Positions 12,584 to 62,350 of a stretch of DNA of 64,000 bases are shown piece by piece. The stretch lies in NCBI GenBank assembly GCA_964448395.1, contig CAYUWM010000002.1, forward strand, positions 4,010 to 68,009, read 5' to 3'. The notes below the pieces were generated by a model that worked only from the letters and a program-made list of their open reading frames with translations, did no database searches and had not been told where the DNA came from. Position 1 is the first letter of the stretch, and the number at the start of each line of letters is the position of its first letter. Source of the stretch: an uncultured Dehalococcoidales bacterium. GTDB lineage: Bacteria > Chloroflexota > Dehalococcoidia > E44-bin15. A program made the position numbers and the translations under genes.

Positions 12584-13540
12584 TTGAAAATCCTGTTAGT
12601 GGAAGACAACCCCGGAGATACCAGGCTGATACAGGAGATGCTCAGGGAAGCGGAGAATGTACAGTTCGATCTGGTACATGCGGAGAGCCTCGCTGAAGCG
12701 TTCAAGTGCCTGAGCGAGGACAACTTCGATTTGGTCCTGCTCGATCTCGGCCTGCCCGACAGCCAGGGCATCGACACGTTCAACAGGGTATACGCCAAGG
12801 TGCCCGTTGTGCCCATCGTTATACTTACCGGGCTCTCCGACGAGGCGTTCGCCATAACGGCGATGCGCCACGGTGCGCAGGACTACCTCAGCAAAAATGA
12901 TGTAGAGAGCAACCTGCTGGTACGCGTCATGCGCTTCGCCATCGAGCGAAAGAGGCTGGAGGAGCGGATGCGCTTGACCACCGAGTTGACCAAGAAAATC
13001 GGCTCCAGCCTTGACCTCAGCGATGTGCTGGAGACATTCGCCACAGGGATAAAGCGGCTGGTGGATTTTAACCAGGCGACGATCACGCTGGTGGAAGAAG
13101 GAAACCTGAGATTCCTGGCGATATCCGCCAAAGAGAACACCGAGTTCGTCGAGGATGCTGTGGTACCGCTGACGGGCACGCCGACCGAATGGGTGGTTGC
13201 CCATAAAAAAGCCAATGTGGAGGCCGATTTCGCCAAGGAGATGCTATTCCCGTTCGATGACATCCACTTCCAGGAGGGGATGAAATCGGCGATCCGCCTT
13301 CCGCTGTTCGCCAAGGGCGATGTCTTTGGAACGCTGAACTTCAACAGCAGCCAACCGAATGCTTACGGAGAACGGGAGCAGGAGATACTGGAGGAGTTCA
13401 CCGGCCAGATCGCCACTGCTATCAAGAACGACATGCTGCTCACCGAGGCGAAGCAGCGAATAGAGGCGCTAGAGATCGCCTACAGGCAGCTGGCCGATAA
13501 GGCCAAGGCTGCCGCCCAAAGCAGTCAGGATGGGGAGTAG
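12584..13540 (+). CDS. Response-regulator receiver fused to a GAF domain (REC-GAF, no DNA-binding domain)
   Basis: TTG start. N-terminus is [15 protein letters not shown]...LLDLGLPDSQG (REC). The C-terminal about 170 aa look GAF-like. Confidence 0.6.
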   Translation: MKILLVEDNPGDTRLIQEMLREAENVQFDLVHAESLAEAFKCLSEDNFDLVLLDLGLPDSQGIDTFNRVYAKVPVVPIVILTGLSDEAFAITAMRHGAQDYLSKNDVESNLLVRVMRFAIERKRLEERMRLTTELTKKIGSSLDLSDVLETFATGIKRLVDFNQATITLVEEGNLRFLAISAKENTEFVEDAVVPLTGTPTEWVVAHKKANVEADFAKEMLFPFDDIHFQEGMKSAIRLPLFAKGDVFGTLNFNSSQPNAYGEREQEILEEFTGQIATAIKNDMLLTEAKQRIEALEIAYRQLADKAKAAAQSSQDGE

Positions 13541-32537: not shown

Positions 32538-33260
32538 TCAAAGCCCGTAAGCCCGACTAACAATTTCAATAGGGTGAGTTACCGCTAACCCTGTGCCCTG
32601 TCGAATCTGCATGTTGCACCCGGGGCACTCTGTAGCAACCAAATCAGCTGCTGACTCCGCGATTCCCTCAAACAGTGCCCGCCCTATTTCCATCGATTTG
32701 GTGTAATTTATCCGCTTGCTGCCGAAAGTGCCACCCATACCACAGCACCCCCTCTCGATTCGATCCACTGAGAGACTCGGTATCAACCGCATCAATTCGA
32801 GACGACGGTCAATTAGCTCCTCCCCCAGAGCCTTGAGATGGCAGGGGGCATGGTACACCACAGAGAGGTCAACCGGTTGAAAGTCGGTATTCAAAGCGTT
32901 GCTGGCCTTAAGTATCGCCAGGTATTCCATGATGTCATACGTCCGCAGGGAGACTTCCTCTGCTTCCTTACCTTCTAAATACCTCGGGTAATCATGCTTT
33001 ATCGCCAGGGCGCAGCTGGTGCAGGCGGTCACGATGTCGCAACCGGCCCCCGCCAGTGAGCGCACGTTGAACTCGGCATGTTTCAGAAAATCGTGGAGGT
33101 TGCCAACGGCCAGCTGGGGAATGCCGCAGCACTTCTCGCCGAGCAATACCGGCTCAAAACCGAGATTCCTCAAGACTTGGATCGTGCTCTTGCCGACATC
33201 GGGGTCAATGTAGTTCGCCGTACAGCCGACGAAGTATACAATCTTCTTATGCTTCTTCAT
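32538..33260 (-). CDS. CCG-domain Fe-S oxidoreductase (LutA/GlcF/HdrD-like)
   Basis: Two cysteine-rich CCG motifs (CCG...C, CxxC). Start is probably the MKKHKK ATG. Confidence 0.65.
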   Translation of the reverse strand: MKKHKKIVYFVGCTANYIDPDVGKSTIQVLRNLGFEPVLLGEKCCGIPQLAVGNLHDFLKHAEFNVRSLAGAGCDIVTACTSCALAIKHDYPRYLEGKEAEEVSLRTYDIMEYLAILKASNALNTDFQPVDLSVVYHAPCHLKALGEELIDRRLELMRLIPSLSVDRIERGCCGMGGTFGSKRINYTKSMEIGRALFEGIAESAADLVATECPGCNMQIRQGTGLAVTHPIEIVSRAYGL

Positions 33261-34569
33261 GTCCCTTATACGTTTTCTCTGCACTAGACCTAAACCATTT
33301 GGATAGAGTCGCACGTTGAAACCGCGGTAGCTGTCTTTCCCTGCTGATGCCCAGCGTCTTCTCCTCCAGCCAGCGCATCAGCCGGTTATGCGTTGCCACA
33401 TTGGCGAGCATGGGCACGGAGCTGCCCCACCTAGCCATCGTCTCGAAATTGGAAAGGAAGCTGTCGGCGATGGGGAGCCGGGTGCCGGCGCTGGCCTCGA
33501 TCCTGGCGTCGAGTATCATTTCGGGCAGATCGATATCTAGGGGGCAATCAGCCCGACAGCTCTTACACTGAAGGCAGAGGTCAAGGGACGGGTTCTTACC
33601 GGTGACGAAGAAGTAGATGTATTCCTTGGGGCTCCACGGGGCGCCGTCCTCGAAGAAAGGGAAGGCGGGACAGCTTTTTATGCATGCGCGACAGTCGATG
33701 CAAGTAATAAGCTCCGCATAGTAGCTGTTCAACAGCCGGCTCCTGCCATTATCGAATACAATGAGGTGGATTTTCCTTGCGGCTCGCTCGGTTGGGCCCT
33801 CGAATGGCAGGCTGTCGATGCTGGCTTCATGTCCGGCTCCGCCACGCAGGGACAGGGGCAGGGCCTCCCAGCCGAAGATCGCCATGCACATCGTCTGGAA
33901 GACGGCGGCATCCATGTCCTCGACGATCTTGTCCAGGCTGGCGACGAGAATGAGCTTGTCGGCCTGAGTGAAGACCTCGCTGATATTGTGCATGTGCTGG
34001 AGCAACACCACTGCCCCGTCCTTTGCCGATATGGCATTCACCCCCAGGAGCCCGGTGAAGCTCTTGCTGCCCTGCTTCCGCAAGCTCACCTCGCGGAGAG
34101 ATACGAGGTCTGTTGATCGGTCGAAGGAGCCGAGAACAGGGTCAGATTCCATCGCGGGAAGCTGCCACGGCTTATCGAACCTGTTCTCGAATGGCTGGAA
34201 TTGGTCATTGTATGTCTCGATGACATCGAGGCCGGATGCAATCATGGCCGGCATCAGTTCCCTGGTAACCACAGCCGATCTACTTATGGCTATCGGGGTG
34301 CCGTCGCTGATCGCTTTGATGGTCTGCACGGCCTGCGCGGCATCATCGGCAAGGGAGAATTCTACATCGGGGTGTGTGATCAGGCTGGCGCTCAGCTCTT
34401 CGCGGAGCGCGTCCAGGTGAGCCAGCGAGTGCTCACGAATCTCCTTAAGACGACTCTTAATATCCTCAACGCTGGGGTGGGGTGTCACGTGCTTGGGCTC
34501 CAGCAATGTTTTGGAGAAACGTCGTCTTTTACCGGTTGAATCGGGCTCCATTAACAGGATGGGCAGCAT
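33247..34569 (-). CDS. LutB-like Fe-S protein (LUD/DUF162 domain plus two 4Fe-4S ferredoxin motifs)
   Basis: Two CxxCxxCxxxCP clusters (CIDCRACIKSCP and CLQCKSCRADCP) next to a LUD-like region. Confidence 0.6.
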   Translation of the reverse strand: MLPILLMEPDSTGKRRRFSKTLLEPKHVTPHPSVEDIKSRLKEIREHSLAHLDALREELSASLITHPDVEFSLADDAAQAVQTIKAISDGTPIAISRSAVVTRELMPAMIASGLDVIETYNDQFQPFENRFDKPWQLPAMESDPVLGSFDRSTDLVSLREVSLRKQGSKSFTGLLGVNAISAKDGAVVLLQHMHNISEVFTQADKLILVASLDKIVEDMDAAVFQTMCMAIFGWEALPLSLRGGAGHEASIDSLPFEGPTERAARKIHLIVFDNGRSRLLNSYYAELITCIDCRACIKSCPAFPFFEDGAPWSPKEYIYFFVTGKNPSLDLCLQCKSCRADCPLDIDLPEMILDARIEASAGTRLPIADSFLSNFETMARWGSSVPMLANVATHNRLMRWLEEKTLGISRERQLPRFQRATLSKWFRSSAEKTYKGHEEA

Positions 34570-34607: not shown

Positions 34608-36614
34608 CTACTTCTTTCGTTTTCTCGGTTTAGGGTTATTCGCTGGAGCGGCCGCCGCTTCTTTCTCCGCCTTATCCAGCGTATCGGCGACGTCCTTCAT
34701 CCCCAGCCGCTCCAGCTCCTGCCTAGTGGGCTGGCGGGTCCAGGGGTCAATGCCCATCAGCTCGAAGTACCGGTTCGTTACCTCGGGCACCTTCCCAATG
34801 TCAATTGTGGCGCCCTTAAAACGCCCGTCCGGCCGGGGCTGGAGTATCTTGAAGGGTATCTCCTCCTTCTCGCCGAAGGCACGCTCACACAGTTTGATAT
34901 ACGCAAACTCCAGCAGCCGCCTCCTCCTGTGGGCATCGACGAGCGTCCCGGTGGTGCACTTGGTGCCGGTGGCAGCGGTGATGGCCTTAGCTACCTCCTC
35001 GGGACCCCACCACATCATGCCATGCGCGACCCTGTCGGACAGCCAGTCGCAGTGCCCGCTGATATCGCACACCGAAATGGCGGTCTCGTTGACCACCGAG
35101 TAGTCGGCGTAGTGCGCCCAGTTATCCTCCTTCCATGAGTCCCGGTCGCCGGTGGTTTTCTCCGCAAAGTCGGAGGTGAAGTCAAAGACGTATTTCTGGG
35201 TCTCTTCATCGGATAGACCCAACTCGCGGTACAGAGGATAGATGGCGTATACATCGGCCGCCGGGGGGTGTATCCACACGTCCGAGGCCCCGGGTATCAT
35301 CCAGATGCCAGCGGTTGTTCCTATGGGTGCGAAGCCCGGATGTACATTCTGGTTCCTGAACTGAATCGCGTAGTTGATGGAACCCCTTCCTAATCTCTGG
35401 GCGGCGGGCACGATGCCGTCGGCCAGCATCTCGCCGAAGCCCTCTCTTTTAGCGGTCTTCTCGACGACAGCCCTGCAGGCCTCCTCGCTGCCCCATTCCA
35501 TGGGAATTCCATCAGTATCGGCGGCGGTGATGATTCCCCTCTCATACAGGTCCATCAGCCATGTAGTGATGCCGGTGGCGCACAGGGTCTCCATCCCGTA
35601 GCGCTGGCACAGCTGGTTGACCCTCCAGAAAACCTTGAGGTCCTTGTTCTTCACCGCGTACCGGAATCCAGTGTACCACATGCAGGTACCGCCGCCACCC
35701 AAGCCGTCCACATCGTAATTATCGTGGCACTGAACCGGGCAGAAGGCGCACCCGATACGCCCCACCATGTATTTATCGATGAAGTCGGTTATGTGCTCTT
35801 CTTTCTTCCGCGGGGGGACCACGAAGGAGTCGAAGTTGCCCCAGCACATCATATCCTGCTCCATGTAGAGGTCATAGTGAACGGATACCCCCTCCCGGTT
35901 CAATACCTTGACGGTATGGCGGCCCAGCCCCTCGGTGTAATATTCGTAGAACTGCTTCCACAGATCCATGAAAGCCTGGGGATCAGCTATCTTAAGCCCC
36001 TTGGTCCCGCGCACGGCCACCGCCTTCAGGTTCTTCGACCCCATGACGGCGCCGTGGCCTACCCTGGAGGCGGTATGCTCGATGTCATGCAGCACCATGG
36101 CGAATGCAACCTGGTTCTCCCCAGCGGGGCCGATACAGGCGATCTGGACGTCGGGGTCCTTGAGCTCCTGCTTGATCATCGTCTGCGTATCGGCCACGTC
36201 CTTGCCCCACAGGTGCCTGGCATCCCTGATCTCCACCTCGTCGTTGTTGATGAACAGGTACACCGGCTCCTCGGCCTTCCCGGTGATGACGATGTGGTCA
36301 TACCCGGCGAACTTCATCTCGGAGGGGAACTGGCCTCCCATTCCGGCATTGCCTATGGTCTTGTTGGTGTACAGCGGCGACTTGGCTATTACCACGCACT
36401 TGTTTCCCAGCAGTGTCCCGGTCAGGGGGCCGGTGCTAAAGATGAGCATGTTCTGCGGGTCGGTCCCGGTGACATCGGGGGGGACTCCGTCCCACAGTAT
36501 CCTGGTGCCGATGCTGAGGCCACCGATGTAATCCCGCACGTAGCTTGAAGTGGGCTCTCTTTCAACCTTTCGGTCGGTTAAATCCACCCTGAGTATCGTT
36601 CCTGCGTTGGACAT
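34608..36614 (-). CDS. Aldehyde:ferredoxin oxidoreductase (tungsten-type AOR family)
   Basis: N-terminal AOR_N domain (ILRVDLT...GGLS...PLTGT...GYDHIVI), 668 aa. C-terminal Lys-rich tail. Confidence 0.85.
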   Translation of the reverse strand: MSNAGTILRVDLTDRKVEREPTSSYVRDYIGGLSIGTRILWDGVPPDVTGTDPQNMLIFSTGPLTGTLLGNKCVVIAKSPLYTNKTIGNAGMGGQFPSEMKFAGYDHIVITGKAEEPVYLFINNDEVEIRDARHLWGKDVADTQTMIKQELKDPDVQIACIGPAGENQVAFAMVLHDIEHTASRVGHGAVMGSKNLKAVAVRGTKGLKIADPQAFMDLWKQFYEYYTEGLGRHTVKVLNREGVSVHYDLYMEQDMMCWGNFDSFVVPPRKKEEHITDFIDKYMVGRIGCAFCPVQCHDNYDVDGLGGGGTCMWYTGFRYAVKNKDLKVFWRVNQLCQRYGMETLCATGITTWLMDLYERGIITAADTDGIPMEWGSEEACRAVVEKTAKREGFGEMLADGIVPAAQRLGRGSINYAIQFRNQNVHPGFAPIGTTAGIWMIPGASDVWIHPPAADVYAIYPLYRELGLSDEETQKYVFDFTSDFAEKTTGDRDSWKEDNWAHYADYSVVNETAISVCDISGHCDWLSDRVAHGMMWWGPEEVAKAITAATGTKCTTGTLVDAHRRRRLLEFAYIKLCERAFGEKEEIPFKILQPRPDGRFKGATIDIGKVPEVTNRYFELMGIDPWTRQPTRQELERLGMKDVADTLDKAEKEAAAAPANNPKPRKRKK

Positions 36615-36615
36615 C

Positions 36616-37104
36616 TTACGCTACCTCCCTCTTGGCCATATCGAGGTACTTCCCCACCTTAGCGCGGGCCAGTGATATCCCCACCTTTTCACTTTGAAGA
36701 TACTTCAAAGCCTCGGTGTAGCAGTACTTGACGCACTGGGGCTCGTCGAGGCCGGCGCACAGGTCGCATTTCATGGCTACACCGCTCTCTGTATCTACTA
36801 CTATTGCGCCCACCGGGCAGGCTATCTCGCACAACCTGCAGCCGATACATTTCTGTTCGTCGACGATCTTTACGCCGGCGTCGTTTTCGCTTATAGCACC
36901 CGTGGGGCATACCGCCTTGCAGAAGGCCTCCTCGCACTGCAGGCAGGATACGCGGACGCTGTAACGGATCTGGTTCTCCACCGTAATCACCACCTTCCCC
37001 CTTGCCTTCACCGGGTTGAACTCCCCCTCTTTAACGAAGCTGCAAATAGCTTCACAGACCCTGCAACCGGTACACTTCGTCGGGTCCCACACGATCCTTT
37101 TCAT
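36616..37104 (-). CDS. Multi-cluster 4Fe-4S ferredoxin (AOR-associated electron-transfer subunit)
   Basis: Four CxxCxxCxxxCP-type motifs in 162 aa. Immediately upstream of AOR on the same strand. Confidence 0.8.
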   Translation of the reverse strand: MKRIVWDPTKCTGCRVCEAICSFVKEGEFNPVKARGKVVITVENQIRYSVRVSCLQCEEAFCKAVCPTGAISENDAGVKIVDEQKCIGCRLCEIACPVGAIVVDTESGVAMKCDLCAGLDEPQCVKYCYTEALKYLQSEKVGISLARAKVGKYLDMAKREVA

Positions 37105-46635: not shown

Positions 46636-46677
46636 TAAAATGTAGCACAGTTACAAACCGGTTGAACCTTTAATTCC

Positions 46678-46772
46678 AGTCCGGAGAGGCTGGCAAGGAG
46701 ATACGGAATGAAATTTACAGACCACAATCGAAAATTCCCTTGTCAGCATATCGTTGATAAGGGGATTTTTTA
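46678..46772 (+). promoter_or_regulatory. PyrR-binding leader RNA (attenuator)
   Basis: AGUCCGGAGAGGCUGG at 46678-46693 matches the PyrR binding-loop consensus ARUCCNGNGAGGYU. A roughly 10-bp hairpin at 46736-46764 plus U-run at 46766-46771 follows, ending 2 nt before the pyrR ATG. Confidence 0.6.
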
Positions 46773-47324
46773 ATGCCCGACAGGATAATCCTCAACGAGG
46801 CGGACATCCGCCGTGCCGTCACCCGCATCGCCCACGAGATCGTGGAGCGCAACCGCGGTTGTGAAGGCCTCACCCTCATCGGTATACACACCCGCGGCGT
46901 GCCGCTGGCCAACCGCATCGCCTCCAGCATCAACGAGCTCGAGAAGGCCAACATCCCCGTGGGCAAAATCGACATCACCCTGCACCGCGACGACATAAAC
47001 TCCGAGGAGAAGATGCCCGCGCTGCGCCCCATCGACATACCACCCGACCTCGAAGAGAAGCGCGTGGTGCTGGTGGACGACGTGCTGTATACCGGTCGAA
47101 CCATCCGCGCCGCCATGGACGCCCTCATCGAATTCGGCCGTCCCCAGGCGATCCAGCTGGTGGCGCTCGTCGACCGCGGGCACCGCGAGCTGCCCATCCG
47201 CGCCGACTACGTGGGCAAGAACCTGCCCACCGCCACCCACGAGGAGGTGCTGGTGCATCTGCAGGAGGTCGACGGTATTGATGAGGTGGCGATCGTAAAA
47301 AACGGACAGGGGGGAGAGCCATGA
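46773..47324 (+). CDS. pyrR: Pyrimidine operon regulator / uracil phosphoribosyltransferase
   Basis: PRTase motif (VVLVDDVLYTGRT). Typical 183-aa length. Confidence 0.9.
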   Translation: MPDRIILNEADIRRAVTRIAHEIVERNRGCEGLTLIGIHTRGVPLANRIASSINELEKANIPVGKIDITLHRDDINSEEKMPALRPIDIPPDLEEKRVVLVDDVLYTGRTIRAAMDALIEFGRPQAIQLVALVDRGHRELPIRADYVGKNLPTATHEEVLVHLQEVDGIDEVAIVKNGQGGEP

Positions 47325-48733
47325 TAAGCCTAGCAAACAGGAGCCTGGTGACCATAGACGATTTCTCCAACGCGGAGATCGAGGCCGTGTTCTCGCTGGC
47401 CGACGAGATGTCGGACGCCGTAACCCGGCAGTCGGACCTGTGCCGGGGCAAGATACTGGCCAGTTTGTTCTTCGAGCCCAGCACCAGGACGCGGATGTCC
47501 TTCGAAGCCGCCATGCACCGGCTGGGGGGGGACGTGATATCGGTGATGGAGATGGGCTCCACCTCGCTGTCCAAGGGGGAGAGCATCGCCGATATGGCAC
47601 GGATCGTGGGCAGCTACGCCGACATCATCGTCATCAGGCACCCGTGGGAAGGGGCAGCGAAGGTGGTGGCCGACTATGCCGGCGTCCCGGTGATCAATGC
47701 CGGCGACGGAGGGCACGAGCACCCCACTCAGACACTGTGCGACCTGTACACCCTCAAGAAGGAGAGGAACACCCTGGAAGGGCTCAAAATAGCGCTGTGG
47801 GGCGACCTCAAATACGGGCGGACTACACATTCTCTGGCCTACGCGCTGGCCCGTTTCGGGGCCACCATCCACTTCCGCCCCGGCGCCGGCCTCGGCCTGC
47901 CGCAGCACGTTATCCGGAAGCTTACCAAGGAGTACGGCGGCATACTGGAGAGCTACGGCGAATCCGGGGGGACTAAAAGCGACAAGACCTTCCCCCTCGA
48001 CGCTATCTATGTGACGCCGAGCAACCCCCACCAGCTCACCAATATCCCCGGCATCAACATCCAGATCGAGATGGAGAAGGGCGTCGATGCCCTGTACGTG
48101 ACCCGCCTCCAGCGGGAGAGGCTGGATGCGGATGCCGGAAAGGACCAGGTATACCCGGTGGTGGACAAGAAGCTGCTCAAGAAGGAGCAGTTCAAGGAGA
48201 CCATCGTGATGCACCCGCTGCCCCGCGTGGACGAGCTGGCCTACGAGATAGACGCTGACCCGCGCAGCATGTACTTCAAGCAGGCGGCTCACGGCGTGCC
48301 GATCAGGATGGCGCTGATGGCGCTGCTGCTGGGGGCAAAAGAGGCCGATATACGGGAGACGGTGCACAACTACGCCCGCAAGAAGGGTTACCCGGTTTAC
48401 AAATGTAACAGCGGGGTGAAATGCGAGAATAAGAAGTGCGTCACCGCCCAGCCCACCGAGACCAGGTATATCAAGCCCGAGTTCATCATAGTGGAGACCA
48501 AGCCGCTGACCCTGCGCTGCCTCTACTGCGAGCACGAGGCGGTCCCGCCGTACTTCGCCAGCCTGAAGTGGCACGAGGGGAAACTGGAGAACAAGCAGTA
48601 CTACCCGTCGCACAGCTACATGGCGGAGCGGATAAGGCCGGAGAACCTGATCATCTTCGGCTCGGAGCGTGACGCCGAGTCCCAGGGTTTCTACCCCAGC
48701 CTCCATCCCCACATATCGGAGAAGAAGGTATAG
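47321..48733 (+). CDS. pyrB: Aspartate carbamoyltransferase catalytic chain fused to a PyrI-like zinc domain
   Basis: STRTR and HPLP motifs give an ATCase core of about 330 aa. This is followed by KCENKKCVTAQPTE...RCLYCEHE (PyrI Zn-domain pattern) and a further tail of about 60 aa. Confidence 0.8.
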   Translation: MISLANRSLVTIDDFSNAEIEAVFSLADEMSDAVTRQSDLCRGKILASLFFEPSTRTRMSFEAAMHRLGGDVISVMEMGSTSLSKGESIADMARIVGSYADIIVIRHPWEGAAKVVADYAGVPVINAGDGGHEHPTQTLCDLYTLKKERNTLEGLKIALWGDLKYGRTTHSLAYALARFGATIHFRPGAGLGLPQHVIRKLTKEYGGILESYGESGGTKSDKTFPLDAIYVTPSNPHQLTNIPGINIQIEMEKGVDALYVTRLQRERLDADAGKDQVYPVVDKKLLKKEQFKETIVMHPLPRVDELAYEIDADPRSMYFKQAAHGVPIRMALMALLLGAKEADIRETVHNYARKKGYPVYKCNSGVKCENKKCVTAQPTETRYIKPEFIIVETKPLTLRCLYCEHEAVPPYFASLKWHEGKLENKQYYPSHSYMAERIRPENLIIFGSERDAESQGFYPSLHPHISEKKV

Positions 48734-50210: not shown

Positions 50211-50978
50211 ATGGATATAGAAAAAACTTTAAAGCTAATTGAAGGGAAAATACAAGAAATACCTGCTCTAAGATGGCCCTGCTTTGATTACAAAAAGAAT
50301 GACGAAGAAGTACATTTGTGGATTAACGACACTCTCTATATAGTTGAGGACGGATTCGGGAGGGATTCTCCAGAATACAAGCGTGTAGCCAATTCATCAA
50401 GGCGTACTAGAGTCATTGACACTTCCAAACAACGTGAAATTAATATGCAGTGCTTAGATTCATGCGAATCTGCACTACAATCAATACTGCGCAATTATGA
50501 AGGAGAAGATTTTACCTCGGTCACTTCTACACCGACTGAGGGGACATTAACTCCTAAGGTATTCATTGCACACGGTAAGGATTCACTAGCACTAACAAAG
50601 CTATGTCGCTTTTTAACACAAATAAGTATTGATCCCCTAGTCGTAGAAGACAAGCCTAGCGAAGGTAGAGCTGTTGACGATAAAGTTGATTTTTATTTAA
50701 ACCAATCTGATTGTGCAATTATATTAGCAACAGGAGATGACCAAATAGACGGCAAGATTCACCCCAGACAAAATGTAATTCACGAAATAGGCTCAGCTCA
50801 AAGAATTTTCCCCCGTAAAATTATCTATCTATTGGAAGGTGGTACTGAATTCCCTTCAAACATTAGTCCTAAAGTCTGGCAGAGTTTCAATCAAGAATGT
50901 ATGGAAGAAGCATTCATTACAATTGCTAGAGAATTAATAGCATTCGGTCTTTTAAAGTCGGTGAAACCTGAACAATGA
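50211..50978 (+). CDS. AT-rich protein with a C-terminal TIR-like domain (COG4271-type) and an N-terminal domain of about 115 aa with no recognisable match
   Basis: The C-terminus (KVFIAHGKD...RQNVIHEIGSAQRIFPRKIIYLLEGGTEFPSNIS) matches the COG4271 consensus (KVFIVHGHD...RARQNVIFELGYF...GVELPSD). GC is roughly 37%, against more than 60% in the flanks. Confidence 0.65.
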   Translation: MDIEKTLKLIEGKIQEIPALRWPCFDYKKNDEEVHLWINDTLYIVEDGFGRDSPEYKRVANSSRRTRVIDTSKQREINMQCLDSCESALQSILRNYEGEDFTSVTSTPTEGTLTPKVFIAHGKDSLALTKLCRFLTQISIDPLVVEDKPSEGRAVDDKVDFYLNQSDCAIILATGDDQIDGKIHPRQNVIHEIGSAQRIFPRKIIYLLEGGTEFPSNISPKVWQSFNQECMEEAFITIARELIAFGLLKSVKPEQ

Positions 50979-55077: not shown

Positions 55078-55494
55078 ATGATAGTAACCAGGAAAATCGG
55101 GGTTCGCCCCAGGGGTGAATGCGACCTAATCGACATTACCGAGGAAGTGAGGCGGGAGGTCACCGGCTCGGGGGTCAATTCGGGCACGGTGACCGTGTTC
55201 ATCAGCGGCTCGACGGCAGGGGTCACCACCATCGAGTACGAATCGGGGGTGTTGAGCGACCTCCAGGCGATGTGGGAACGCCTGGTACCGCGGAACATGT
55301 CCTACCAGCACGACCGCCGGTGGGGGGACGGCAACGGCTACGCCCACGTGAGGGCATCGCTTCTCGGCCCCTCCCTGGTGGTGCCCTTCACCGACCGCAA
55401 CCTGCATCTGGGCACCTGGCAGCAGATCATAGTCGCCGACTTCGACAATCGTCCCCGCACCAGAGAGGTGGTACTGCAGATTGTGGGCGATTAG
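55078..55494 (+). CDS. YjbQ/UPF0047 family protein
   Basis: Family-like sequence over 138 aa. Confidence 0.6.
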   Translation: MIVTRKIGVRPRGECDLIDITEEVRREVTGSGVNSGTVTVFISGSTAGVTTIEYESGVLSDLQAMWERLVPRNMSYQHDRRWGDGNGYAHVRASLLGPSLVVPFTDRNLHLGTWQQIIVADFDNRPRTREVVLQIVGD

Positions 55495-55608
55495 GTTGAC
55501 AACAGGGGCTACATATAGTATAAACAACACAGTTGAAATCCATCTGTTACCATATCTGGACAGCGGATGGTAAGGGGTTTATAATGTCCCCTGTACAAGG
55601 GAAATGTC

Positions 55609-56079
55609 ATGGCCGATGAACAAACAGCATCGCTGAAGAAGGCGCTAGCCAAGTTCGAGCTCTTCATGTGGCTCACCGACGACGAACTGGAAAAGGTCGC
55701 CGCGCTGAGCCGTGAGGAGAGCTTCGCCGCGGGGATTAGCATTATCGCTGAAGGCGCAACCGCCCACGACCTGTACATGGTGGAGGAAGGGCAGGTGAGG
55801 GTGGAGATGAGCCTTTCCGTCTACCCCGGCCTGGTGCAGGACTCCCTGGTGGAGATTATACCCAAGGGGGAGCCGTTCGGCTGGTCCGCGGTTATCGGCT
55901 CCCGCGTGTACACCATGACGGCACGGGCCATGGAGCAGGTCAAGGTTATCGCTATAGACGGGGAGAAGCTGCTTGCCCTGTTCAACAAGAATCCCGACAT
56001 CGGGTTCAAGGTAATGGAGGGGCTGGTATCAGTGGTTTCCCAGAGGGTGAGGAGCGTCAAGAAGACACTTCTTGTATAA
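55609..56079 (+). CDS. Stand-alone cNMP-binding-domain protein, paralog type A
   Basis: Single CAP-effector-like beta-barrel with no HTH. The phosphate-binding cassette is degenerate (FGWSAV...TARA instead of FGE.AL...R[ST]A). Confidence 0.65.
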   Translation: MADEQTASLKKALAKFELFMWLTDDELEKVAALSREESFAAGISIIAEGATAHDLYMVEEGQVRVEMSLSVYPGLVQDSLVEIIPKGEPFGWSAVIGSRVYTMTARAMEQVKVIAIDGEKLLALFNKNPDIGFKVMEGLVSVVSQRVRSVKKTLLV

Positions 56080-56142
56080 TTCGATCGGGTGCTATTTTGC
56101 AGGAAGGCATAACGCTGGTGACGGGGGAGAAGAGGGAGAACA

Positions 56143-56607
56143 GTGGCTACTATTAAAGAGACGCTCGCCAACTCGGAGCTGTTCAAGGGGCTCACCGATG
56201 AAGAGCTGGATCGGGTAGCATCAGTATCCCGCGTGGAGATCTACGAGGGGGGCGCCATTTTATTCACCGAGGGCAGCACTGCAGAGGACCTCTACATTAT
56301 CGAGCTGGGTAAGGTGGCCATGGATATGAGCCTCTCCGGCACCCCGGGCATGGGCAAGCAGGCCAGCGTGGAGACCATGACCAAGGGGCAGGGATGTGGA
56401 TGGTCCGCGCTTTCAGGCACTCCGGTTTATACCCTTACGGCACGGGCCATCGAGCCGGTACGGGTAATCGCTATAGACGGAGGCCGCCTCTACAATCTGC
56501 TCAAAGAGGACCCCTATCTGGGCTATCGGATAATGTCGCGGATGGCGACGGCGATTTCCGCCAGGCTCAGGAACATCAGGATGACGATGCGGCTGTTCAA
56601 TCGCTAG
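56143..56607 (+). CDS. Stand-alone cNMP-binding-domain protein, paralog type B
   Basis: GTG start. Ends RLRNIRMTMRLFNR. Confidence 0.65.
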   Translation: MATIKETLANSELFKGLTDEELDRVASVSRVEIYEGGAILFTEGSTAEDLYIIELGKVAMDMSLSGTPGMGKQASVETMTKGQGCGWSALSGTPVYTLTARAIEPVRVIAIDGGRLYNLLKEDPYLGYRIMSRMATAISARLRNIRMTMRLFNR

Positions 56608-56806
56608 AGCCACACTACATGGAATTATCCTTTGCTGTATAGATGACAATATTACTCTCCACAATCTCATTAACAGCGGAACATCATTGCAGCGGAAACC
56701 CGGCAATTAATCGTCTTTCAGCCGCCTGTACCGAATATATGATGAAGTGTCACTGGGAAGAAATGCTTACCTGCACTCCACGCCACAGCGAAAGGGCTAA
56801 AGCCTG

Positions 56807-57262
56807 ATGGCCTCTATAAAAACGGCTCTGGCGAACTCCGCCCTGTTCAACAAGCTAACCGATGAGGAACTGGATAAGATAGCCTCGCTGAGCCGTCAGG
56901 AGGTATACCCCGAAGGCACCCTGCTTTTCTCAGAAGGGACGATGGCTACCGACCTTTACATCGTCGGTGCGGGTCAAGTGGCGGTGGAGATGAAACTCGC
57001 AGTCTACGCCGGCCTGGTGCAGAAGGCCACGGTGGAGATCATCCTCGAGGGGGATACCTTCGGCTGGTCGGCAGTCCTCGGCTCCCTGATATACTCCCTG
57101 TCGGCCAGGGCCCTGGAGCCGGTCAGGGTTATCACCATAGACGGAGACCGCCTGCACTCTATGCTGGATGAAAACCCGGATATGGGCTATCGGGTAATGA
57201 CTGGTCTGGTAGAGGTCGTCTCTTCAAGGTTGGGAAGTATCAAGAAGACCCTCTTGGTCTGA
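56807..57262 (+). CDS. Stand-alone cNMP-binding-domain protein, paralog type A
   Basis: Ends KKTLLV, as does the first paralog. Confidence 0.65.
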   Translation: MASIKTALANSALFNKLTDEELDKIASLSRQEVYPEGTLLFSEGTMATDLYIVGAGQVAVEMKLAVYAGLVQKATVEIILEGDTFGWSAVLGSLIYSLSARALEPVRVITIDGDRLHSMLDENPDMGYRVMTGLVEVVSSRLGSIKKTLLV

Positions 57263-57330
57263 GCGTCCTGCTGAACCAGCACTGGACGATATGCCACGGA
57301 CCGTTATATAATTAACCTTCGGGGAATCAG

Positions 57331-57792
57331 TTGACCACCGTTAAAGAGGCTCTAGCACAATCCGATATATTCAAGGGTCTGCCTGACGAATGGCTGATAG
57401 AGATAGGCGAGCTGGTAGAGCCGAAAGAATACCAGGCCAAAGAATATCTTTTCCTCGAGGGAGATGAGCCCACCAACATGTACATCGTGCAGGTGGGCAA
57501 GGTGGCTATGGACCTCAGCATGTCCCCCATCCCCGGGGTCGGGAACCAGACCACAGTGGACACCCTGACCAGGGGGCAGACGTGCGGCTGGTCGTCGGTG
57601 GTGGGAAGTCCCTATTCCATGACCGCAAGATGTATCGATCCAGTGGGCGTTTTGGCTATCAACGGTCCCTTACTGCGCTCACTGTTGGACAGCAAACCGG
57701 AGATGGGATATAAGGTGATGGAGAGCATGGCATGGGTGGTCATCTCCAGGCTGAGGAACATCAGGATGGCGACCCGCATGCTCAACCGCTAG
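57331..57792 (+). CDS. Stand-alone cNMP-binding-domain protein, paralog type B
   Basis: TTG start. Ends RLRNIRMATRMLNR. Confidence 0.65.
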   Translation: MTTVKEALAQSDIFKGLPDEWLIEIGELVEPKEYQAKEYLFLEGDEPTNMYIVQVGKVAMDLSMSPIPGVGNQTTVDTLTRGQTCGWSSVVGSPYSMTARCIDPVGVLAINGPLLRSLLDSKPEMGYKVMESMAWVVISRLRNIRMATRMLNR

Positions 57793-57836
57793 TATCACAA
57801 CTTAATTAATTTACTATTCTGAAACGAGGGAGGAAT

Positions 57837-58772
57837 ATGAAAACAGAGACCATTATCAAAGCAGGAAGCAATCTGGAGAGGGTACTGGCAAGCGGGAGCT
57901 TCGCCGCCACCGGTGAACTGGGACCACCCCAGAGCGCCGACCCGGAGGTTATCCGCGAGAAAGCGAAGCTGCTCGTGGGCAACGTGGATGCGGTCAATAT
58001 CACTGACGGGCAGACGGCGATTGTCCGCATGTCGAGCTTCGGCGCAGCATTGATAGCCATGGAGCAGGGCCTCGAGCCCACGGTGCAGATGACCTGCCGC
58101 GACCGCAACCGTATCGCCATCCAGATGGATATACTGGGGATAGCCGCCAACGGGGTGAAAAACTTCCTCTGCCTTACCGGTGATCACCAGTCCTTCGGCA
58201 ACCACCCCCAGGCTAAGGGGGTATTCGACCTCGACAGCATCCAGCTTATCAAGATGGTCAAGGACATGCGCGACGATAAGAAATTCCAGTGCGGCGAGGA
58301 AATGAAGGCCGAGCCCCGTCTCTTCATCGGGGCCGCCGCCAACCCGTTTGCCGACCCCCTCGACTTCCGCGCCACGCGGCTGGCGAAGAAGGTGGCGGCG
58401 GGTGCCGACTTCATCCAGACGCAAATCGTCTTCAACGTGGAGCGGTTCGCCAAATGGATGGAGGCGGTGCGCGAGCGCGATCTGCACAAGCAGACCTATA
58501 TCCTCGCCGGCGTGGCGCCGATCAAATCCGCCGGCGTCGCCCGCTACATGAAGAAGAACGTCCCGGGGATGGATGTCCCCGACGAGATCGTGGAGCGCAT
58601 GGCCTCAGCCCCCAAGGAACAGGCCAAGCAGACCGGCATCGACCTGTGCGTGGATATCATCAAGCAGGTGCGCGAGATAGAGGGCGTTGCCGGCGTCCAC
58701 ATCATGGCCATCGAGTGGGAGGAGGCGGTTCACGAGATCTGCGAGAAGGCCAGCCTGCTGCCACGGCCGTAG
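57837..58772 (+). CDS. metF: Methylenetetrahydrofolate reductase
   Basis: MTHFR fold over 311 aa. RBS is GAGGGAGG. Confidence 0.75.
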   Translation: MKTETIIKAGSNLERVLASGSFAATGELGPPQSADPEVIREKAKLLVGNVDAVNITDGQTAIVRMSSFGAALIAMEQGLEPTVQMTCRDRNRIAIQMDILGIAANGVKNFLCLTGDHQSFGNHPQAKGVFDLDSIQLIKMVKDMRDDKKFQCGEEMKAEPRLFIGAAANPFADPLDFRATRLAKKVAAGADFIQTQIVFNVERFAKWMEAVRERDLHKQTYILAGVAPIKSAGVARYMKKNVPGMDVPDEIVERMASAPKEQAKQTGIDLCVDIIKQVREIEGVAGVHIMAIEWEEAVHEICEKASLLPRP

Positions 58773-58838: not shown

Positions 58839-59048
58839 CTAGTCCACTAAGAGCATCACCTGCGATGCCTTGATGGCGGCGTAGACCTCCTTGCCTTCCT
58901 TCAACCCCAGCTTATCGGCGGATTCTTTAGTGACCATCGATACTATCTCGGCCCCGCCATCGATCTGGATCACCACTTCAGTATTGACCGCCCCGGTCTT
59001 CACCCGCTTCACCTTGCCCTTGAACAGATTCCGAGCGCTTGTTTTCAT
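58839..59048 (-). CDS. mop: Molybdopterin/molybdate-binding Mop (TOBE) protein
   Basis: 69-aa single TOBE domain. Confidence 0.75.
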   Translation of the reverse strand: MKTSARNLFKGKVKRVKTGAVNTEVVIQIDGGAEIVSMVTKESADKLGLKEGKEVYAAIKASQVMLLVD

Positions 59049-59166
59049 TTCATCGACCTCCTAATACCTTCTATCTCAGGAAATCCTATGATACTACTTT
59101 ACCGACGTTTGTCAATAGGCTGTTTTGGGCAGTGGGGGCATGATGAATGCCCCCACTGCATGCCTA

Positions 59167-60210
59167 TCACTCTATATACGGCTTGAGCTGTTCGGGTATC
59201 TTGCTGGCATCGCTGGGCTGAGCCGGCACCAGTGGCGGCTGTCCCTGGCTGCTCAGTATCGCCTGGCCTTCCGAGCTGAGCATGAGCTCCACGAAATCCA
59301 GCGCCTCGGCGGGGTGAGGTGCGTTGGAAGGTATGGTAACCCCGTATATTGTGGGCTCCCCCACCAGGGTGGAAACGGTTCCCTCCTCGCTGCCGGTAAC
59401 ATCGACGGTTGCCTTGCTGTAGAAGTCCGCCAACGCCTGGTTGGACATATCGAGCTCGTCGGGGAGCGTTATATAGTCATAACCATGCTGTATCGCTACC
59501 GACACATACTCGAAGGCATAGTCCAGGTCACCGGAGTCCAATAGATACATAAGCTCTACCGATTTCGGCTTCACAATCTCGCCCCAGCCACCACCCATCC
59601 GGCCGCGATCCATATCATCGCCGCCATCGGGTATAGGTATCAAGGCGTCGTACAGGCCGGAGGCGTTATCGTCGGGGGTCAGCCCGAAGTCTGCGGCCTC
59701 CTCATAGTAGTACTTCTGAGCCAGCTGGCAGACCATCAGCGTCCGGTAGCCGCAGGGGTCGGCATCGGGATCGGAGTGGCCGTAGGTCACATCCTCATTA
59801 AGCAGTATGTCGTACCAGGTGCGCTCGCCGCTTACTATCTCGTCGGCGAAGGGGGCGCCGTCGCGGTAAGCTATCACTATCGAGTTCGTCGCAAAATTGA
59901 TGTACCAGTCAGCGTAATCGGGGAACATCAGATCCTCGATGGCCTTATAGTCCGCGGAGCCGATCACGTCCGCCGCTTTACCCAGCTCGGTTACCTTCCT
60001 GATAGTGGTGCGGCTGCCCGCCCCTTCCAGCACTACGGTCACGTGCTCATTCTGCGCCTCGAAACTGTCAGCCATCTCCTCGTAGGGCACGGCCAGGCTC
60101 CCCGCGTGCAGAACGGTTAGCTCTACAGCCTCCGGTTCAGAGGTGCAGGCAGTCGCCGCCAGCGCCAGCACCATCACCAGTGCGACCAGTGGTAGAAACA
60201 CCCTTTTCAT
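59167..60210 (-). CDS. Tungstate/molybdate ABC transporter substrate-binding lipoprotein (WtpA/ModA-like)
   Basis: Signal peptide with an LAATAC lipobox. Start placed at the MKRVFL ATG. Confidence 0.7.
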   Translation of the reverse strand: MKRVFLPLVALVMVLALAATACTSEPEAVELTVLHAGSLAVPYEEMADSFEAQNEHVTVVLEGAGSRTTIRKVTELGKAADVIGSADYKAIEDLMFPDYADWYINFATNSIVIAYRDGAPFADEIVSGERTWYDILLNEDVTYGHSDPDADPCGYRTLMVCQLAQKYYYEEAADFGLTPDDNASGLYDALIPIPDGGDDMDRGRMGGGWGEIVKPKSVELMYLLDSGDLDYAFEYVSVAIQHGYDYITLPDELDMSNQALADFYSKATVDVTGSEEGTVSTLVGEPTIYGVTIPSNAPHPAEALDFVELMLSSEGQAILSSQGQPPLVPAQPSDASKIPEQLKPYIE

Positions 60211-60223
60211 GCAACACTCCTTT

Positions 60224-61270
60224 CTAAAATATGTGAACCGCCGACGCTTTGAATACCACATGGACCTCGTTCCCCTCAACAAGGCCCAGCTCTTCAAACG
60301 ATCGGCGGGTAACCAGACACACGAAGTCAATCGGGGTGCTGACGGTTACATTCATAGTCGCCCCCCGGTCCTCGACCTTGGTAATGGGTCCAACCAGAGA
60401 GTTGCGCGCGCTGGATACCAGCGACTCCCGGGATAGCAATATGTCCTCCGGCCGCAGTGAAGCGTGCAGCAACCCCCGCAGCTCGGTTATGACCTCCACC
60501 TCCACCCCTCCGATGTCCATTACCGTCCCCCGCCTGCTGTCATCCCGTACCTCTCCGGAATATATATTGCGCGTCATGGCGAAGCGGGCAACGAACTCCG
60601 AGTTCGGCTGGCGGAATATCTCCTCCGGGGTGCCTACCTGCACGATCCTGCCTTCACCCAGCACTGCGATGCGGTCGCCCAGGGCTACCGCCTCCTCGAA
60701 GTCATGGGTCACATGTATGAACGTACGCCCCAGCCGGCGCTGTATATCCCGCAGCTCCCGTTGCACCCTATCCCGCTGCTCCGGATCCAGGGCGCTCAGC
60801 GGCTCGTCCAGCAGCACCACCTGCGGGCTGGTGCTGAGGGCACGGGCCAGAGACACCTTCTGCGCCTCCCCCCCGCTGAGGGTGCCGGGCTTGCGCTGCA
60901 ACAGGTGCTCGATATCCAGCAATCCCACCAGCCATTCCAATGCCTGAGCCGTCTCTTTCTTGGTATGCCTGCGCCGCTTCAGCCCGAAAAGGATATTGTC
61001 CCTGACCGACAGGTGGGGGAACAGGGCATAATCCTGGTAAACGAATCCGATTCCGCGCTTCTCCGGCTCCAGCTTGGTTACCTCGGTTCCTCCCAGCCAT
61101 ATCTCTCCGCTCTTGACCGGGTGCAGGCCGGCGATGGCTTCCAGCAGCACGGTCTTCCCGGCACCGGTGGGACCCAGGATGATGAAGTATTCGCCCTTCT
61201 CTACGCTCAGGTTGGCACCCTCGAGGATGAAATCCCCAAGGTCCACGGTCAGCCCTTTAATCTCAATCAC
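60224..61270 (-). CDS. ABC transporter ATP-binding protein with a C-terminal TOBE domain (ModC/WtpC-like)
   Basis: Walker A (GPTGAGKT), ABC signature (LSGGEAQ), Walker B (LLDEP). C-terminal TOBE. Confidence 0.8.
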   Translation of the reverse strand: MIEIKGLTVDLGDFILEGANLSVEKGEYFIILGPTGAGKTVLLEAIAGLHPVKSGEIWLGGTEVTKLEPEKRGIGFVYQDYALFPHLSVRDNILFGLKRRRHTKKETAQALEWLVGLLDIEHLLQRKPGTLSGGEAQKVSLARALSTSPQVVLLDEPLSALDPEQRDRVQRELRDIQRRLGRTFIHVTHDFEEAVALGDRIAVLGEGRIVQVGTPEEIFRQPNSEFVARFAMTRNIYSGEVRDDSRRGTVMDIGGVEVEVITELRGLLHASLRPEDILLSRESLVSSARNSLVGPITKVEDRGATMNVTVSTPIDFVCLVTRRSFEELGLVEGNEVHVVFKASAVHIF

Positions 61271-62103
61271 GCCCGCTTACCCCGGTAGTAAATGATGCGC
61301 AGGAACACGAAAATCACCAGGCAGGTGATCATGAGCAGTGTGACCAGCGGCAACACGTAGTCAATGCCGTACATCTCCAGCCCCCGGTAGACCAAGACGG
61401 AGGCTATCGGTGGGGATGAAGTGAGTACCAGCACCGCCCCGAACTCGCTTATACTGCGCGCCCACATCATGATGGAGCCGCCGAATATGCTGCGCCGGGC
61501 AAGCGGCAACGAAATCCGGAAAAAGGTCTGCCACGGCGAGGCCCCCAGTGTGCGTGCCACCTTCTCCAGCCTCACGTCAACCTCTTCAAAACCCTGCTTG
61601 GCCGAATTGATCAGGAACGGCACGCTGACGAACACCATGGCGATGATAATCCCCGGTATCTCCTGCACGAAACTTATGCCGAAGGCATCGAATATCTTTC
61701 CGCCGAAGTGCATCTTGCCGAAGACGAACAGCAGGGCGATGCCCGCGGCTATGTGCGGCACGACGATGGGCACCTCGATGAGGCTCTCTATTACCCGCTT
61801 CCCCGGGAACTGGTGCCGCGCCAGAAAATACGCCAGCGGAACCCCGAATATCAGGCCGACGGCGGTGGCGATAAGGGCGGTGTAAACACTGAGCCATATC
61901 GAGTTGCGGACATCGCTGTCAAGGAGCTGCGACCACAGCTCGCCCGCACCGGATGAGAACAGAATCTTGGCCAACGGTATGAAGATAAAAAGCAGGATAA
62001 CCATCCCCAGCAGGAAAAAGGTCAGCGTCAGCCTGCGCTGTATGGTCCATCTGACCGCGTCGCGCAGACTGTATCTCTTCTTTGATAGCCCACCTGAAAC
62101 CAT
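61267..62103 (-). CDS. ABC transporter permease (ModB/WtpB-like)
   Basis: Multi-TM protein with an EAA-like loop. Confidence 0.75.
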   Translation of the reverse strand: MVSGGLSKKRYSLRDAVRWTIQRRLTLTFFLLGMVILLFIFIPLAKILFSSGAGELWSQLLDSDVRNSIWLSVYTALIATAVGLIFGVPLAYFLARHQFPGKRVIESLIEVPIVVPHIAAGIALLFVFGKMHFGGKIFDAFGISFVQEIPGIIIAMVFVSVPFLINSAKQGFEEVDVRLEKVARTLGASPWQTFFRISLPLARRSIFGGSIMMWARSISEFGAVLVLTSSPPIASVLVYRGLEMYGIDYVLPLVTLLMITCLVIFVFLRIIYYRGKRA

Positions 62104-62350
62104 AACCCACCTCCGGTTACACCATATAACGACTGAACAAAAAGAAAAGCCCGGTAGAGTGGTTCAAGCCACCCTACTGGGCTAAATACATAAAAAAACC
62201 TCCACAAGGAGGCATGCAGATAATATCTACTAACAGCAAAGCCCTCCTTTCCACAACGGGGGGCGCAGGCGTTTCCCCCTGCACCGTATCGGCTGCCCGC
62301 CATGCCCCACGGTTTAGGCGCGGCAACTCGGAAAGCTAGTATTCAGTTTT
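62104..62350 (-). ncRNA. Long structured 5' leader of the tungstate/molybdate transporter operon; candidate Moco/Wco-type riboswitch
   Basis: Leader of about 240 nt. Contains CCGAG...GUGGAAAGGAGGG, several GC-rich stems, and a CCUCC-ACAA-GGAGG hairpin plus U7 about 90 nt before the start codon. Confidence 0.35.

Follow-up and report, generated by a model that had tools for sequence, protein, structure and literature searches.

Four tandem genes on the + strand of the window, i.e., the whole stretch of 64,000 nucleotides from an uncultured Dehalococcoidales bacterium that was analyzed here, encode stand-alone proteins of the cyclic-nucleotide-binding (CNB) fold that are virtually certain to be real and functional. 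According to the list of open reading frames (ORFs), they follow the order A-B-A-B and are succeeded by metF. In each of the four proteins the phosphate-binding cassette (PBC) of cAMP and cGMP receptors is replaced, and we regard them as a paired, duplicated variant of a known but uncharacterized class of stand-alone, cassette-degenerate CNB-like proteins. The best explanation overall, to which we give an even chance, is that they act as A/B heterodimeric sensors of a signal other than a cyclic nucleoside monophosphate (cNMP) and signal by binding a partner. The four genes are as follows:

A1, 55609-56079, + strand: 156 aa, ATG start; type A lone CNB-like sensor domain, tail KKTLLV
B1, 56143-56607, + strand: 154 aa, GTG start; type B lone CNB-like sensor domain, tail RLRNIRMTMRLFNR
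A2, 56807-57262, + strand: 151 aa, ATG start; diverged second type A copy
B2, 57331-57792, + strand: 153 aa, TTG start; diverged second type B copy

Fold, replaced cassette, and wider family

Each protein has the CRP/PKA-type cyclic-nucleotide-binding fold. All four matched the Pfam family PF00027 (cNMP_binding) over nearly its whole length (model positions 2-4 to 88-89 of 89), with scores of 44.6-50.8 bits against a gathering score of 27.5 (E = 4.2e-13 for A1, 1.4e-11 for B1, 1.6e-13 for A2, and 5.1e-13 for B2). The Pfam scan found no second domain in any of them, and no helix-turn-helix (HTH), kinase, or channel. Matches in NCBIfam stayed below threshold and concerned the sensor halves of FtrB and CRP and the CNB insert of family 2B encapsulins; FtrB (PRK09392), the best of them, reached 50.2 bits against a cut-off of 211, and CRP 22.3 bits against 266. 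An AlphaFold2 (AF2) model of A1 built on a 26-sequence alignment (predicted local distance difference test, pLDDT, 83.1; predicted template modeling score, pTM, 0.77) consists of N-terminal helices, an eight-stranded beta-barrel, a B-helix (118-127), and an amphipathic C-helix of ~27 residues (129-155) that reaches the C-terminus. The proteins stop at 151-156 aa, at the point where CRP/FNR regulators would enter the DNA-binding domain and histidine kinases the dimerization and histidine phosphotransfer (DHp) helix. With PF00027 as their only domain and a model that stops at the C-helix, the picture given by a preceding sequence-only reading, namely four lone barrels of ~150 aa without HTH, kinase, or channel, is borne out. 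The top Foldseek match of the A1 model in the Protein Data Bank (PDB) was 3MDP (TM 0.79 by target, 31% identity), followed by the sensor domains of DNR, PKG, CRP, and MloK1, with CprK also among the hits; 637 PDB matches were obtained at E<=0.001, and the top 50 were all CNB domains.

Each of the four ORFs has its own start codon and Shine-Dalgarno sequence (GGGAG 5' of B1). Compared with 95%-identical orthologues, the ratios of nonsynonymous to synonymous substitution rates (dN/dS) were 0.045 for A1, 0.038 for B1, 0.094 for A2, and 0.089 for B2, at an unsaturated dS of 0.4-0.6. All four genes are functional and under strong purifying selection, and the constraint on pair 2 is approximately two-fold weaker than that on pair 1.

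In a canonical PBC, a glutamate holds the ribose 2'-OH and an arginine holds the cyclic phosphate, and, to our knowledge, every characterized cNMP-binding CNB domain uses this Glu and this Arg. The residue register was set by HMMER alignments of A1 to PKA RII-beta and PKG, in which the following segments are paired:

PKA RII-beta PBC segment, aligned to A1: FGELALVTNKPRAASAHA
PKG I PBC segment, aligned to A1: FGEKALQGEDVRTANVIA
A1 PBC-like segment, paired with the two above: FGWSAVIGSRVYTMTARA

FGE aligns over FGW, which puts Trp92 of A1 in the place of the PBC Glu, and the R-[AT]-A triplet aligns over Y101-T102-M103, which puts Tyr101 in the place of the PBC Arg. The register of A2, B1, and B2 agrees with that of A1, and the same two columns hold W and Y; only the PBC Gly and the Thr/Ser that follows the Arg position (Thr102 in A1) are kept. 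The PBC residues of CRP, Gly72, Glu73, and Arg83 (PMC12937710), correspond to the same positions. The canonical Gly-Glu plus Arg-[Ser/Thr/Ala] cassette of cAMP/cGMP receptors is absent from all four proteins, and mapping of the PBC residues in this register revealed an intact set in none of them. The change of FGE to FGW/CGW pointed out in the sequence-only reading is confirmed by the alignment to PKA RII-beta and PKG; its second claim, a change of R[ST]A to TARA, was right about the degenerate cassette but wrong about the position, since TARA lies four residues downstream of the Arg position. The A and B proteins share with a large family of relatives a new motif, G-W-S-A-(V/L)...Y-(T/S)-x-(T/S)-A-R, with conservation of at least 80% at G91, S93, A94, G97, Y101, and A105 in either type (117 sequences: 52 A and 65 B). 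Judged by these residues, the A and B proteins very probably lack canonical cAMP or cGMP binding, which supports the earlier suggestion that the ligand is probably neither of the two.

A profile of 26 A and B sequences was searched against 1.84 billion cluster representatives and gave 24,962 matches at E<=1e-3 and 3,555 clusters at E<=1e-10. Among the best 148 of these 3,555 representatives, 97 were no longer than 190 aa; in nearly all of these short relatives, Trp stands in place of the Glu and Tyr, Leu, or Phe in place of the Arg, and the canonical Glu/Arg pair occurs in none of the 97. Where canonical E...R domains do appear among the same 148, they are few and sit in long multi-domain proteins. 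Across 192 domains of the best representatives, the motif columns were occupied by W (145), S (138), A (120), T (107), and A (148), and the Arg-position column by Y (78), L (23), and F (15). The motif G-W-S-A...[YLF]-T-x-[ST]-A is matched by each of the window's four proteins, which, at 151-156 aa, also have the single-domain build of ~140-190 aa that ends at the C-helix. We use 'stand-alone G-W-S-A CNB-like proteins (3MDP/Gmet_1532 type)' as a working name for this class, which is not a curated family. These proteins appear in databases as 'CRP-like cAMP-binding protein' or 'CRP/FNR family transcriptional regulator' (the latter given by JGI to some homologues); both labels mislead, as the proteins lack a DNA-binding domain and have lost the residues that contact cAMP.

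In a Pfam scan of 20 longer relatives, 11 proved to be CNB-HisKA(-HATPase_c) kinases whose HisKA domain begins near residue 150, right behind the C-helix; one carries an OmpR-type output, one consists of five tandem copies of the domain, and none of the 20 contains a Crp-type HTH. These architectures suggest that the module is a widely used cytoplasmic signal-input domain whose C-helix would feed a dimeric helical output, and that the window proteins represent an output-less version of this sensor module. Natural fusions of two to five G-W-type CNB domains occur in the relatives P0087, P0088, and P0094. The tandem proteins P0087 (840 aa), P0088 (532 aa), and P0091 (493 aa), with 2-5 G-W-type CNB domains, have in common a C-terminal region of ~100 aa, 'GDLR.KDLRAF.GEERVVW..GE.QLTTEAVLIGMG.D.P.VIPL...', that has no Pfam match.

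The A-B pair, its duplication, and its locus

The protein tails alternate between ...KKTLLV in type A and ...RLRNIRMxxRxxNR in type B, just as the sequence-only reading had stated, and pairwise identities are 56% for A1-A2, 48% for B1-B2, and 33-50% between A and B. In a neighbor-joining tree with 200 bootstraps, A1 and A2 form one clade (bootstrap 84) and B1 and B2 the other (73). A1 and B1 group with genes of single-pair genomes, and A2 and B2 fall into their own longer-branched subclades (bootstrap 80 and 88), the A2 sub-branch including P0045 and L004_3 and the B2 sub-branch P0064 and L004_4. A single A-B pair is present in six related lineages. From the tree clades together with the single-pair genomes, it follows that the two-gene unit is the ancestral module and was duplicated as a unit, as had been proposed from the alternating tails. 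The duplication is old, because the copies share no DNA-level repeats (none were found between the gene copies). A1-B1 represents the ancestral pair, which evolves slowly and occurs in all relatives; the second copy, A2-B2, is either old and repeatedly lost or fast-evolving.

Word-indexed searches returned approximately 50 close homologues per type, all of 149-170 aa, and the named ones came from metagenome-assembled genomes (MAGs) of Chloroflexota/Dehalococcoidia; B1 has 39 close homologues of equal length, and orthologues of all four genes occur with the same lengths in other assemblies. A scan of species-representative genomes with an A-only alignment found four loci in 4 species, all Dehalococcoidales/Chloroflexota MAGs. 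Gene neighborhoods were compared in a sample of 10 lineages, all of them Dehalococcoidales MAGs and thus of one order, in which the loci (numbered with L) are arranged in three ways:

Two pairs plus metF: the window, L001-3, L013, L004/5/14 (four lineages)
One pair plus metF: L019/20 (one lineage)
One pair, no metF within 6-8 kb: L006-8, L009/10, L011/12/16, L017/18, L025 (five lineages)

In all ten lineages, A and B are direct neighbors in an unchanged order, with a spacing of 24-77 bp. The pair or pairs always lie between yjbQ (same strand, after carB-pyrK) and a convergent molybdate/tungstate ATP-binding cassette (ABC) transporter. As for metF, a check of its co-occurrence found it beside the pair(s) in only 5 of the 10 lineages, and the link between metF and the pair is not conserved.

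More distant stand-alone homologues (30-44% identity) at L021, L023, and L024 are solitary and have no neighbor in common; they adjoin fdhD and formate dehydrogenase, a GAF protein, or a PyrK-like protein beside a kinase/response-regulator pair. Because these homologues are solitary, the A-B pairing appears specific to the Dehalococcoidales clade, and the fold can work without a paralogous partner. Two of their neighborhoods can be described further. P0084 (L021 6001-6459) adjoins fdhD, a formate/nitrite transporter, and a molybdopterin formate dehydrogenase with HdrA/MvhD-like genes. A PyrK-like Fe-S flavoprotein gene ends 28 bp ahead of P0271 (L024 286-774), which is convergent with a PilS-type histidine kinase and a response regulator.

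Comparison of 52 A-type with 65 B-type sequences revealed the following class-specific features (A/B residues):

77 Q/K: beta4-beta5 flap
90 F/C, 99 R/P, 103 M/L: PBC-like loop
122 L/Y, 125 F/L: B-helix
133 F/Y, 137 E/S, 138 G/R, 139 L/M, 140 V/A: first half of the C-helix
Type B C-terminal extension: three residues, F-x-R

In CRP-family dimers, the flap, PBC loop, B-helix, and C-helix elements form the ligand lid and the dimer interface. The A/B differences follow the pattern that would be expected for a heterodimer with two non-equivalent sites, although such a pattern is not proof of one.

The remaining features of the locus are:

55557..55585, + strand: sigma-70-like promoter candidate of the first pair, TGGACA-17-TATAAT, 11/12 consensus positions, ~24 nt 5' of the A1 start
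56608..56806, + strand: inter-pair spacer, 199 bp
57283..57312, + strand: promoter-like element in the A2-B2 spacer, TGGACG-18-TATAAT, 10/12 consensus positions
57837..58772, + strand: metF, methylenetetrahydrofolate reductase (MTHFR), 311 aa, 44 bp after B2; PF02219, E = 3.7e-42

An equivalent T(G/A/T)GACA-17-TATAAT element lies just 5' of the first A gene in all inspected loci (L001, L004, L017, L019, L006/L009, and L011), whereas the spacer between yjbQ and A varies from 114 to 570 bp. Because this promoter of its own is conserved despite the variable spacer, the A-B pair is likely a transcription unit separate from the pyr/yjbQ genes. Coupling to the yjbQ/pyr operon was rejected on the same grounds, and the adjacency was taken as synteny. 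Coupling to the molybdate/tungstate (Mo/W) transporter was likewise rejected, since that operon is on the opposite strand under its own molybdenum cofactor (Moco) riboswitch, two transporter types occur at the site, and a single order was sampled.

The inter-pair spacer has no Rfam match at E<=1, no repeat, and no terminator-like site; in L001 it is conserved only loosely, and no alignment with L004 could be made by eye. The candidate of a riboswitch or other structured RNA in the leaders and spacers was discarded, as no Rfam match at E<=1 was found across 55400-57900. The element in the A2-B2 spacer is conserved in L001 (7654-7722), and the motif CGGTACT(A/G)GAC beside it is also found between A and B at the single-pair loci L017 (4517-4593) and L019 (1401-1455), which hints that pair 2 was derived from, or recombined with, an L017/L019-like pair. 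By way of this element, the B genes may also be expressed on their own.

The metF product resembles the MTHFR half of PRK08645 (E = 5.7e-69), and its gene is preceded by a strong GGGAGG Shine-Dalgarno sequence. No terminator-like site was found on the + strand between 54900 and 59200, and the remark in the sequence-only reading that no terminator precedes metF therefore holds in the window. To judge by this arrangement, B2-metF or A2-B2-metF are probably co-transcribed in this genome. In L004, B2 and metF are separated by a 213-bp spacer with a promoter-like sequence.

Proposed ligand sensing, pairing, and output

In the mechanism that we favor, the A and B proteins would sense a small molecule or cofactor other than cAMP/cGMP under the PBC-like lid, would pair via their C-helices to form a heterodimer with two non-equivalent pockets, and would pass the signal on by protein-protein contact between their exposed basic helix ends and an unfused partner. 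The parts of this mechanism are not equally firm. That the proteins are ligand-responsive sensors rather than inert scaffolds is the more probable of the two by some way; we infer a sensor function because the same module is fused to kinases. Dimerization via the C-helix and the loss of canonical cAMP/cGMP binding are what knowledge of the family would lead one to expect. The A/B heterodimer, suggested by the genome context through constant adjacency, co-duplication, and class-specific interface residues, hangs in the balance. Genome context also points to an output by binding of an unfused partner, and any particular partner or ligand that might be proposed would at present have only a slim chance of being the right one. 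In the boldest version of the proposal, the G-W-S-A...Y-T module would be an orphan class of receptors of a non-nucleotide metabolite or cofactor that forms an obligate A/B heterodimer in Dehalococcoidales, with A2-B2 controlling MetF, and hence one-carbon and methionine flux, through direct protein-protein binding. We consider this version a long shot; if true, the identity of the ligand would in one step give an annotation to thousands of proteins, both stand-alone ones and histidine kinases with this input domain.

Several observations weigh against heterodimeric, ligand-responsive sensors. In the A1 model, confidence is lowest in the PBC-like segment 95-100 (pLDDT <50), and in the AF2 model of the two-domain relative P0094 (pLDDT 86) the domains are confident with a pTM of only 0.56. 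Both C-helices are net basic, with no obvious charge complementarity, and the distant homologues do without a partner gene. It could also be that Trp and Tyr just take up the pocket and that the domain has no ligand, like that of KCNH channels. No neighbor beyond the lineage-wide synteny points to a partner, and the literature search returned no publications on 3MDP/Gmet_1532 or this CNB subfamily. The same search yielded nothing specific on stand-alone CNB proteins, CNB-histidine kinases, or Dehalococcoidia in connection with CNB or MTHFR.

The A and B proteins might instead form homodimers or remain monomers, each with a ligand of its own, their adjacency being due to tandem duplication and co-regulation. 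Homo-oligomers are the rule among CRP/FNR sensor domains and 3MDP-type proteins, the genes of distant family members stand alone, and the promoter-like element in the A2-B2 spacer and in some A-B spacers would permit separate expression of B. Against this stand the adjacency, order, and 24-77 bp spacing kept in 10 of 10 lineages, the duplication as a unit, and the location of the systematic A/B differences in interface and lid elements, so that we consider the absence of a heterodimer possible though doubtful. Less likely still are ligand-free, self-filled domains, in which Trp92 and Tyr101 would occupy the pocket and the proteins would serve as constitutive dimerization or scaffold modules or as buffers. 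In favor of such domains, both polar cNMP contacts have been exchanged for bulky aromatic residues, and several FNR/CRP-family regulators take the active form with a filled cavity and no ligand (PMC12937710). However, many histidine kinases keep the motif in their N-terminal input, a position in which a domain blind to signals would make little sense; the PBC-like loop shows strong conservation and is nevertheless predicted to be flexible; and the proteins end at the C-helix, without the post-helix strand that supplies the intrinsic ligand of KCNH.

Two further proposals would assign a specific ligand or target to the pair. The proteins could still be cyclic-nucleotide receptors, either for cAMP/cGMP in a non-canonical mode or for another cyclic (di)nucleotide, e.g., cCMP or cUMP, perhaps as a split Pycsar-like effector together with a TIR gene (PF10137) at 50211-50978, 4.6 kb upstream. 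The Pfam family itself is cNMP_binding, the retained T102 has a counterpart in PKG that contacts the phosphate, and A1 gave weak PADLOC matches to the CNB part of TIR effectors and PycTIR (E ~1e-5). We nevertheless consider it improbable, because neither the four proteins nor, with few exceptions, their stand-alone relatives have the Glu and Arg, and no cyclase domain was found among the window ORFs scanned. As for the defense link, it was rejected, since the PADLOC matches are weak and partial (E 1e-5 to 4e-3) and most relatives that have retained the A-B pair lack the TIR gene; moreover, this gene matches the single-gene candidate PDC-S35 rather than Pycsar, and carB, pyrK, and yjbQ intervene between it and the CNB genes. 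Slightly less credible again is the idea that the pairs are regulatory subunits of one-carbon metabolism, with A2-B2 binding MetF in a MetV-like or allosteric manner (folate, S-adenosylmethionine, or methionine signal). B2 and metF are 44 bp apart with no terminator-like site between them, metF follows the pair(s) in 5 of 10 lineages, one of which is single-pair, and a distant solitary homologue lies beside fdhD, a formate transporter, and formate dehydrogenase. On the other hand, five lineages keep the pair with no metF within 6-8 kb, the 213-bp spacer of L004 with its promoter-like sequence sets B2 apart from metF, and shared synteny is weak evidence when all loci belong to one order. Finally, the four ORFs might be fragments of one or more decayed or frameshifted Crp/Fnr genes, a possibility that the sequence-only reading had raised for a single Crp-like gene and that the JGI name of some homologues could seem to favor. 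Its probability is negligible and we excluded it: each ORF holds a complete CNB domain (up to model positions 2-89 of 89) behind its own start codon and Shine-Dalgarno sequence, the lengths are kept in dozens of homologues, dN/dS is 0.04-0.09, there is no DNA-level repeat, and no HTH was detected in the four proteins or the 20 longer relatives scanned.

Other features of the window and comparison with known systems

The TIR gene at 50211-50978 (+) encodes a 255-aa protein of the PF10137 CAP12/Pycsar type that matches PADLOC PDC-S35 over its full length (E = 1e-27). It lies inside the pyrimidine operon between pyrC and carB, which is the position of carA in L025, L011, and L006; carA was not detectable in the 64-kb window by tblastn, and L009/L010 have a 52%-identical TIR gene at the same place. 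A PyrB-PyrI fusion of 470 aa (OTCace_N, OTCace, and PyrI_C) is encoded at 47321-48733 (+), and a PyrR-binding RNA element at 46663-46773 (+), scoring 54.3 against an Rfam gathering score of 54, lies upstream of pyrR (46773-47324). On the opposite side of the CNB genes, a Moco riboswitch at 62228-62345 (-), with 58 bits against a gathering score of 36, heads the ABC transporter operon 58839-62345. This Mo/W operon (-) comprises the permease (61267-62103), an ATPase with TOBE domain (60224-61270), the binding protein (59167-60330), and a TOBE/molbindin protein of 69 aa (58839-59048), and it converges on metF; relatives have either a ModA-type or an SBP_bac_1/11-type transporter at this site. An aldehyde:ferredoxin oxidoreductase of the tungsten-enzyme family (668 aa) adjoins a 4Fe-4S ferredoxin at 34608-37104 (-), beside LUD/CCG-domain (lactate-utilization-like) genes at 32538-34569, which fits the Mo/W uptake operon. 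Two giant cytoplasmic histidine kinases are encoded at 2178-8108 (+; 1976 aa, ~12 PAS domains) and 8694-12122 (+; 1142 aa, ~7 PAS domains), and they are followed by a single-domain response regulator (12109-12561) and a receiver-GAF protein (12584-13540). The tyrosyl-tRNA synthetase at 14528-16588 (+) has 686 aa, ~260 aa more than usual, and its extension gave only a weak TyrRS_C match.

The CRP/FNR sensor domains (E. coli CRP, P. aeruginosa DNR, FtrB/FNR, CprK, and NtcA) share with the window proteins the same fold and a long C-helix that serves as dimer interface, and FNR, DNR, CooA, CprK, and NtcA sense ligands other than cNMPs. CRP/FNR factors have a C-terminal HTH, whereas the window proteins have no DNA-binding domain by Pfam and score only 16-50 bits in NCBIfam, far under the family cut-offs of 211-300; the intergenic DNA that follows each of their genes shows no conservation as coding sequence. 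The CNB domains of PKA and PKG gave significant matches to A1 (E 6e-07 to 1e-4), and, with CNB-A and CNB-B in tandem, they set a precedent for cooperation between two non-equivalent CNB domains. Unlike the window proteins, they possess the canonical Glu and Arg, bind cAMP/cGMP, and are contained in one polypeptide with a kinase partner. A degenerate cassette has its precedent in the CNB homology domains of KCNH/EAG channels (CNBHD) and CNNM transporters (CNBH), which keep the CNB fold, have lost the PBC Arg, and do not bind cAMP/cGMP. These domains are eukaryotic and fused to channels or transporters, and the KCNH pocket is filled by a post-C-helix strand that the window proteins do not have; no specific sequence relationship to KCNH/CNNM was found beyond a faint PF25562 match in P0087. 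Pycsar effectors resemble the window proteins in their CNB-type domain, which in their case is fused to TIR or transmembrane parts and encoded beside a pyrimidine cyclase. In contrast, the window proteins are not fused in this way, the scan of window ORFs showed no cyclase beside them, and the PADLOC matches cover the CNB part only.

Uncharacterized CNB-HisKA-HATPase_c kinases (e.g., P0092, P0101, P0118, and P0152) share the pocket motif 'G-W-S-A...T-x-S-A' with the window proteins, at profile E-values of 1e-29 to 1e-44. Their C-helix runs directly into the DHp helix of a fused kinase output, whereas the window CNB proteins have neither a fused kinase nor an adjacent kinase gene. The best PDB match of A1 by sequence is again 3MDP (phmmer E = 1.7e-13, A1 13-146 to 3MDP 8-140), i.e., Gmet_1532 of Geobacter metallireducens, a 142-aa 'putative cyclic nucleotide-binding protein' that, like A1, consists of a stand-alone CNB fold and a C-helix. 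The literature search found no function or ligand for it. Its cassette is likewise replaced (FGVSSLIKPYHYTSSARA compared to FGWSAVIGSRVYTMTARA in A1), with Tyr at the Arg position in both; the differences are Val, not Trp, at the Glu position and an overall identity to A1 of 31%, and we know of no A/B paired paralogue of Gmet_1532. Degenerate stand-alone CNB domains will not surprise a specialist in bacterial signaling, and no long-standing question is touched. The window nevertheless provides a clean, conserved example of a large family that comprises thousands of clusters and has one structural-genomics structure, and the conserved A-B pairing offers a tractable handle for de-orphaning the sensor module.

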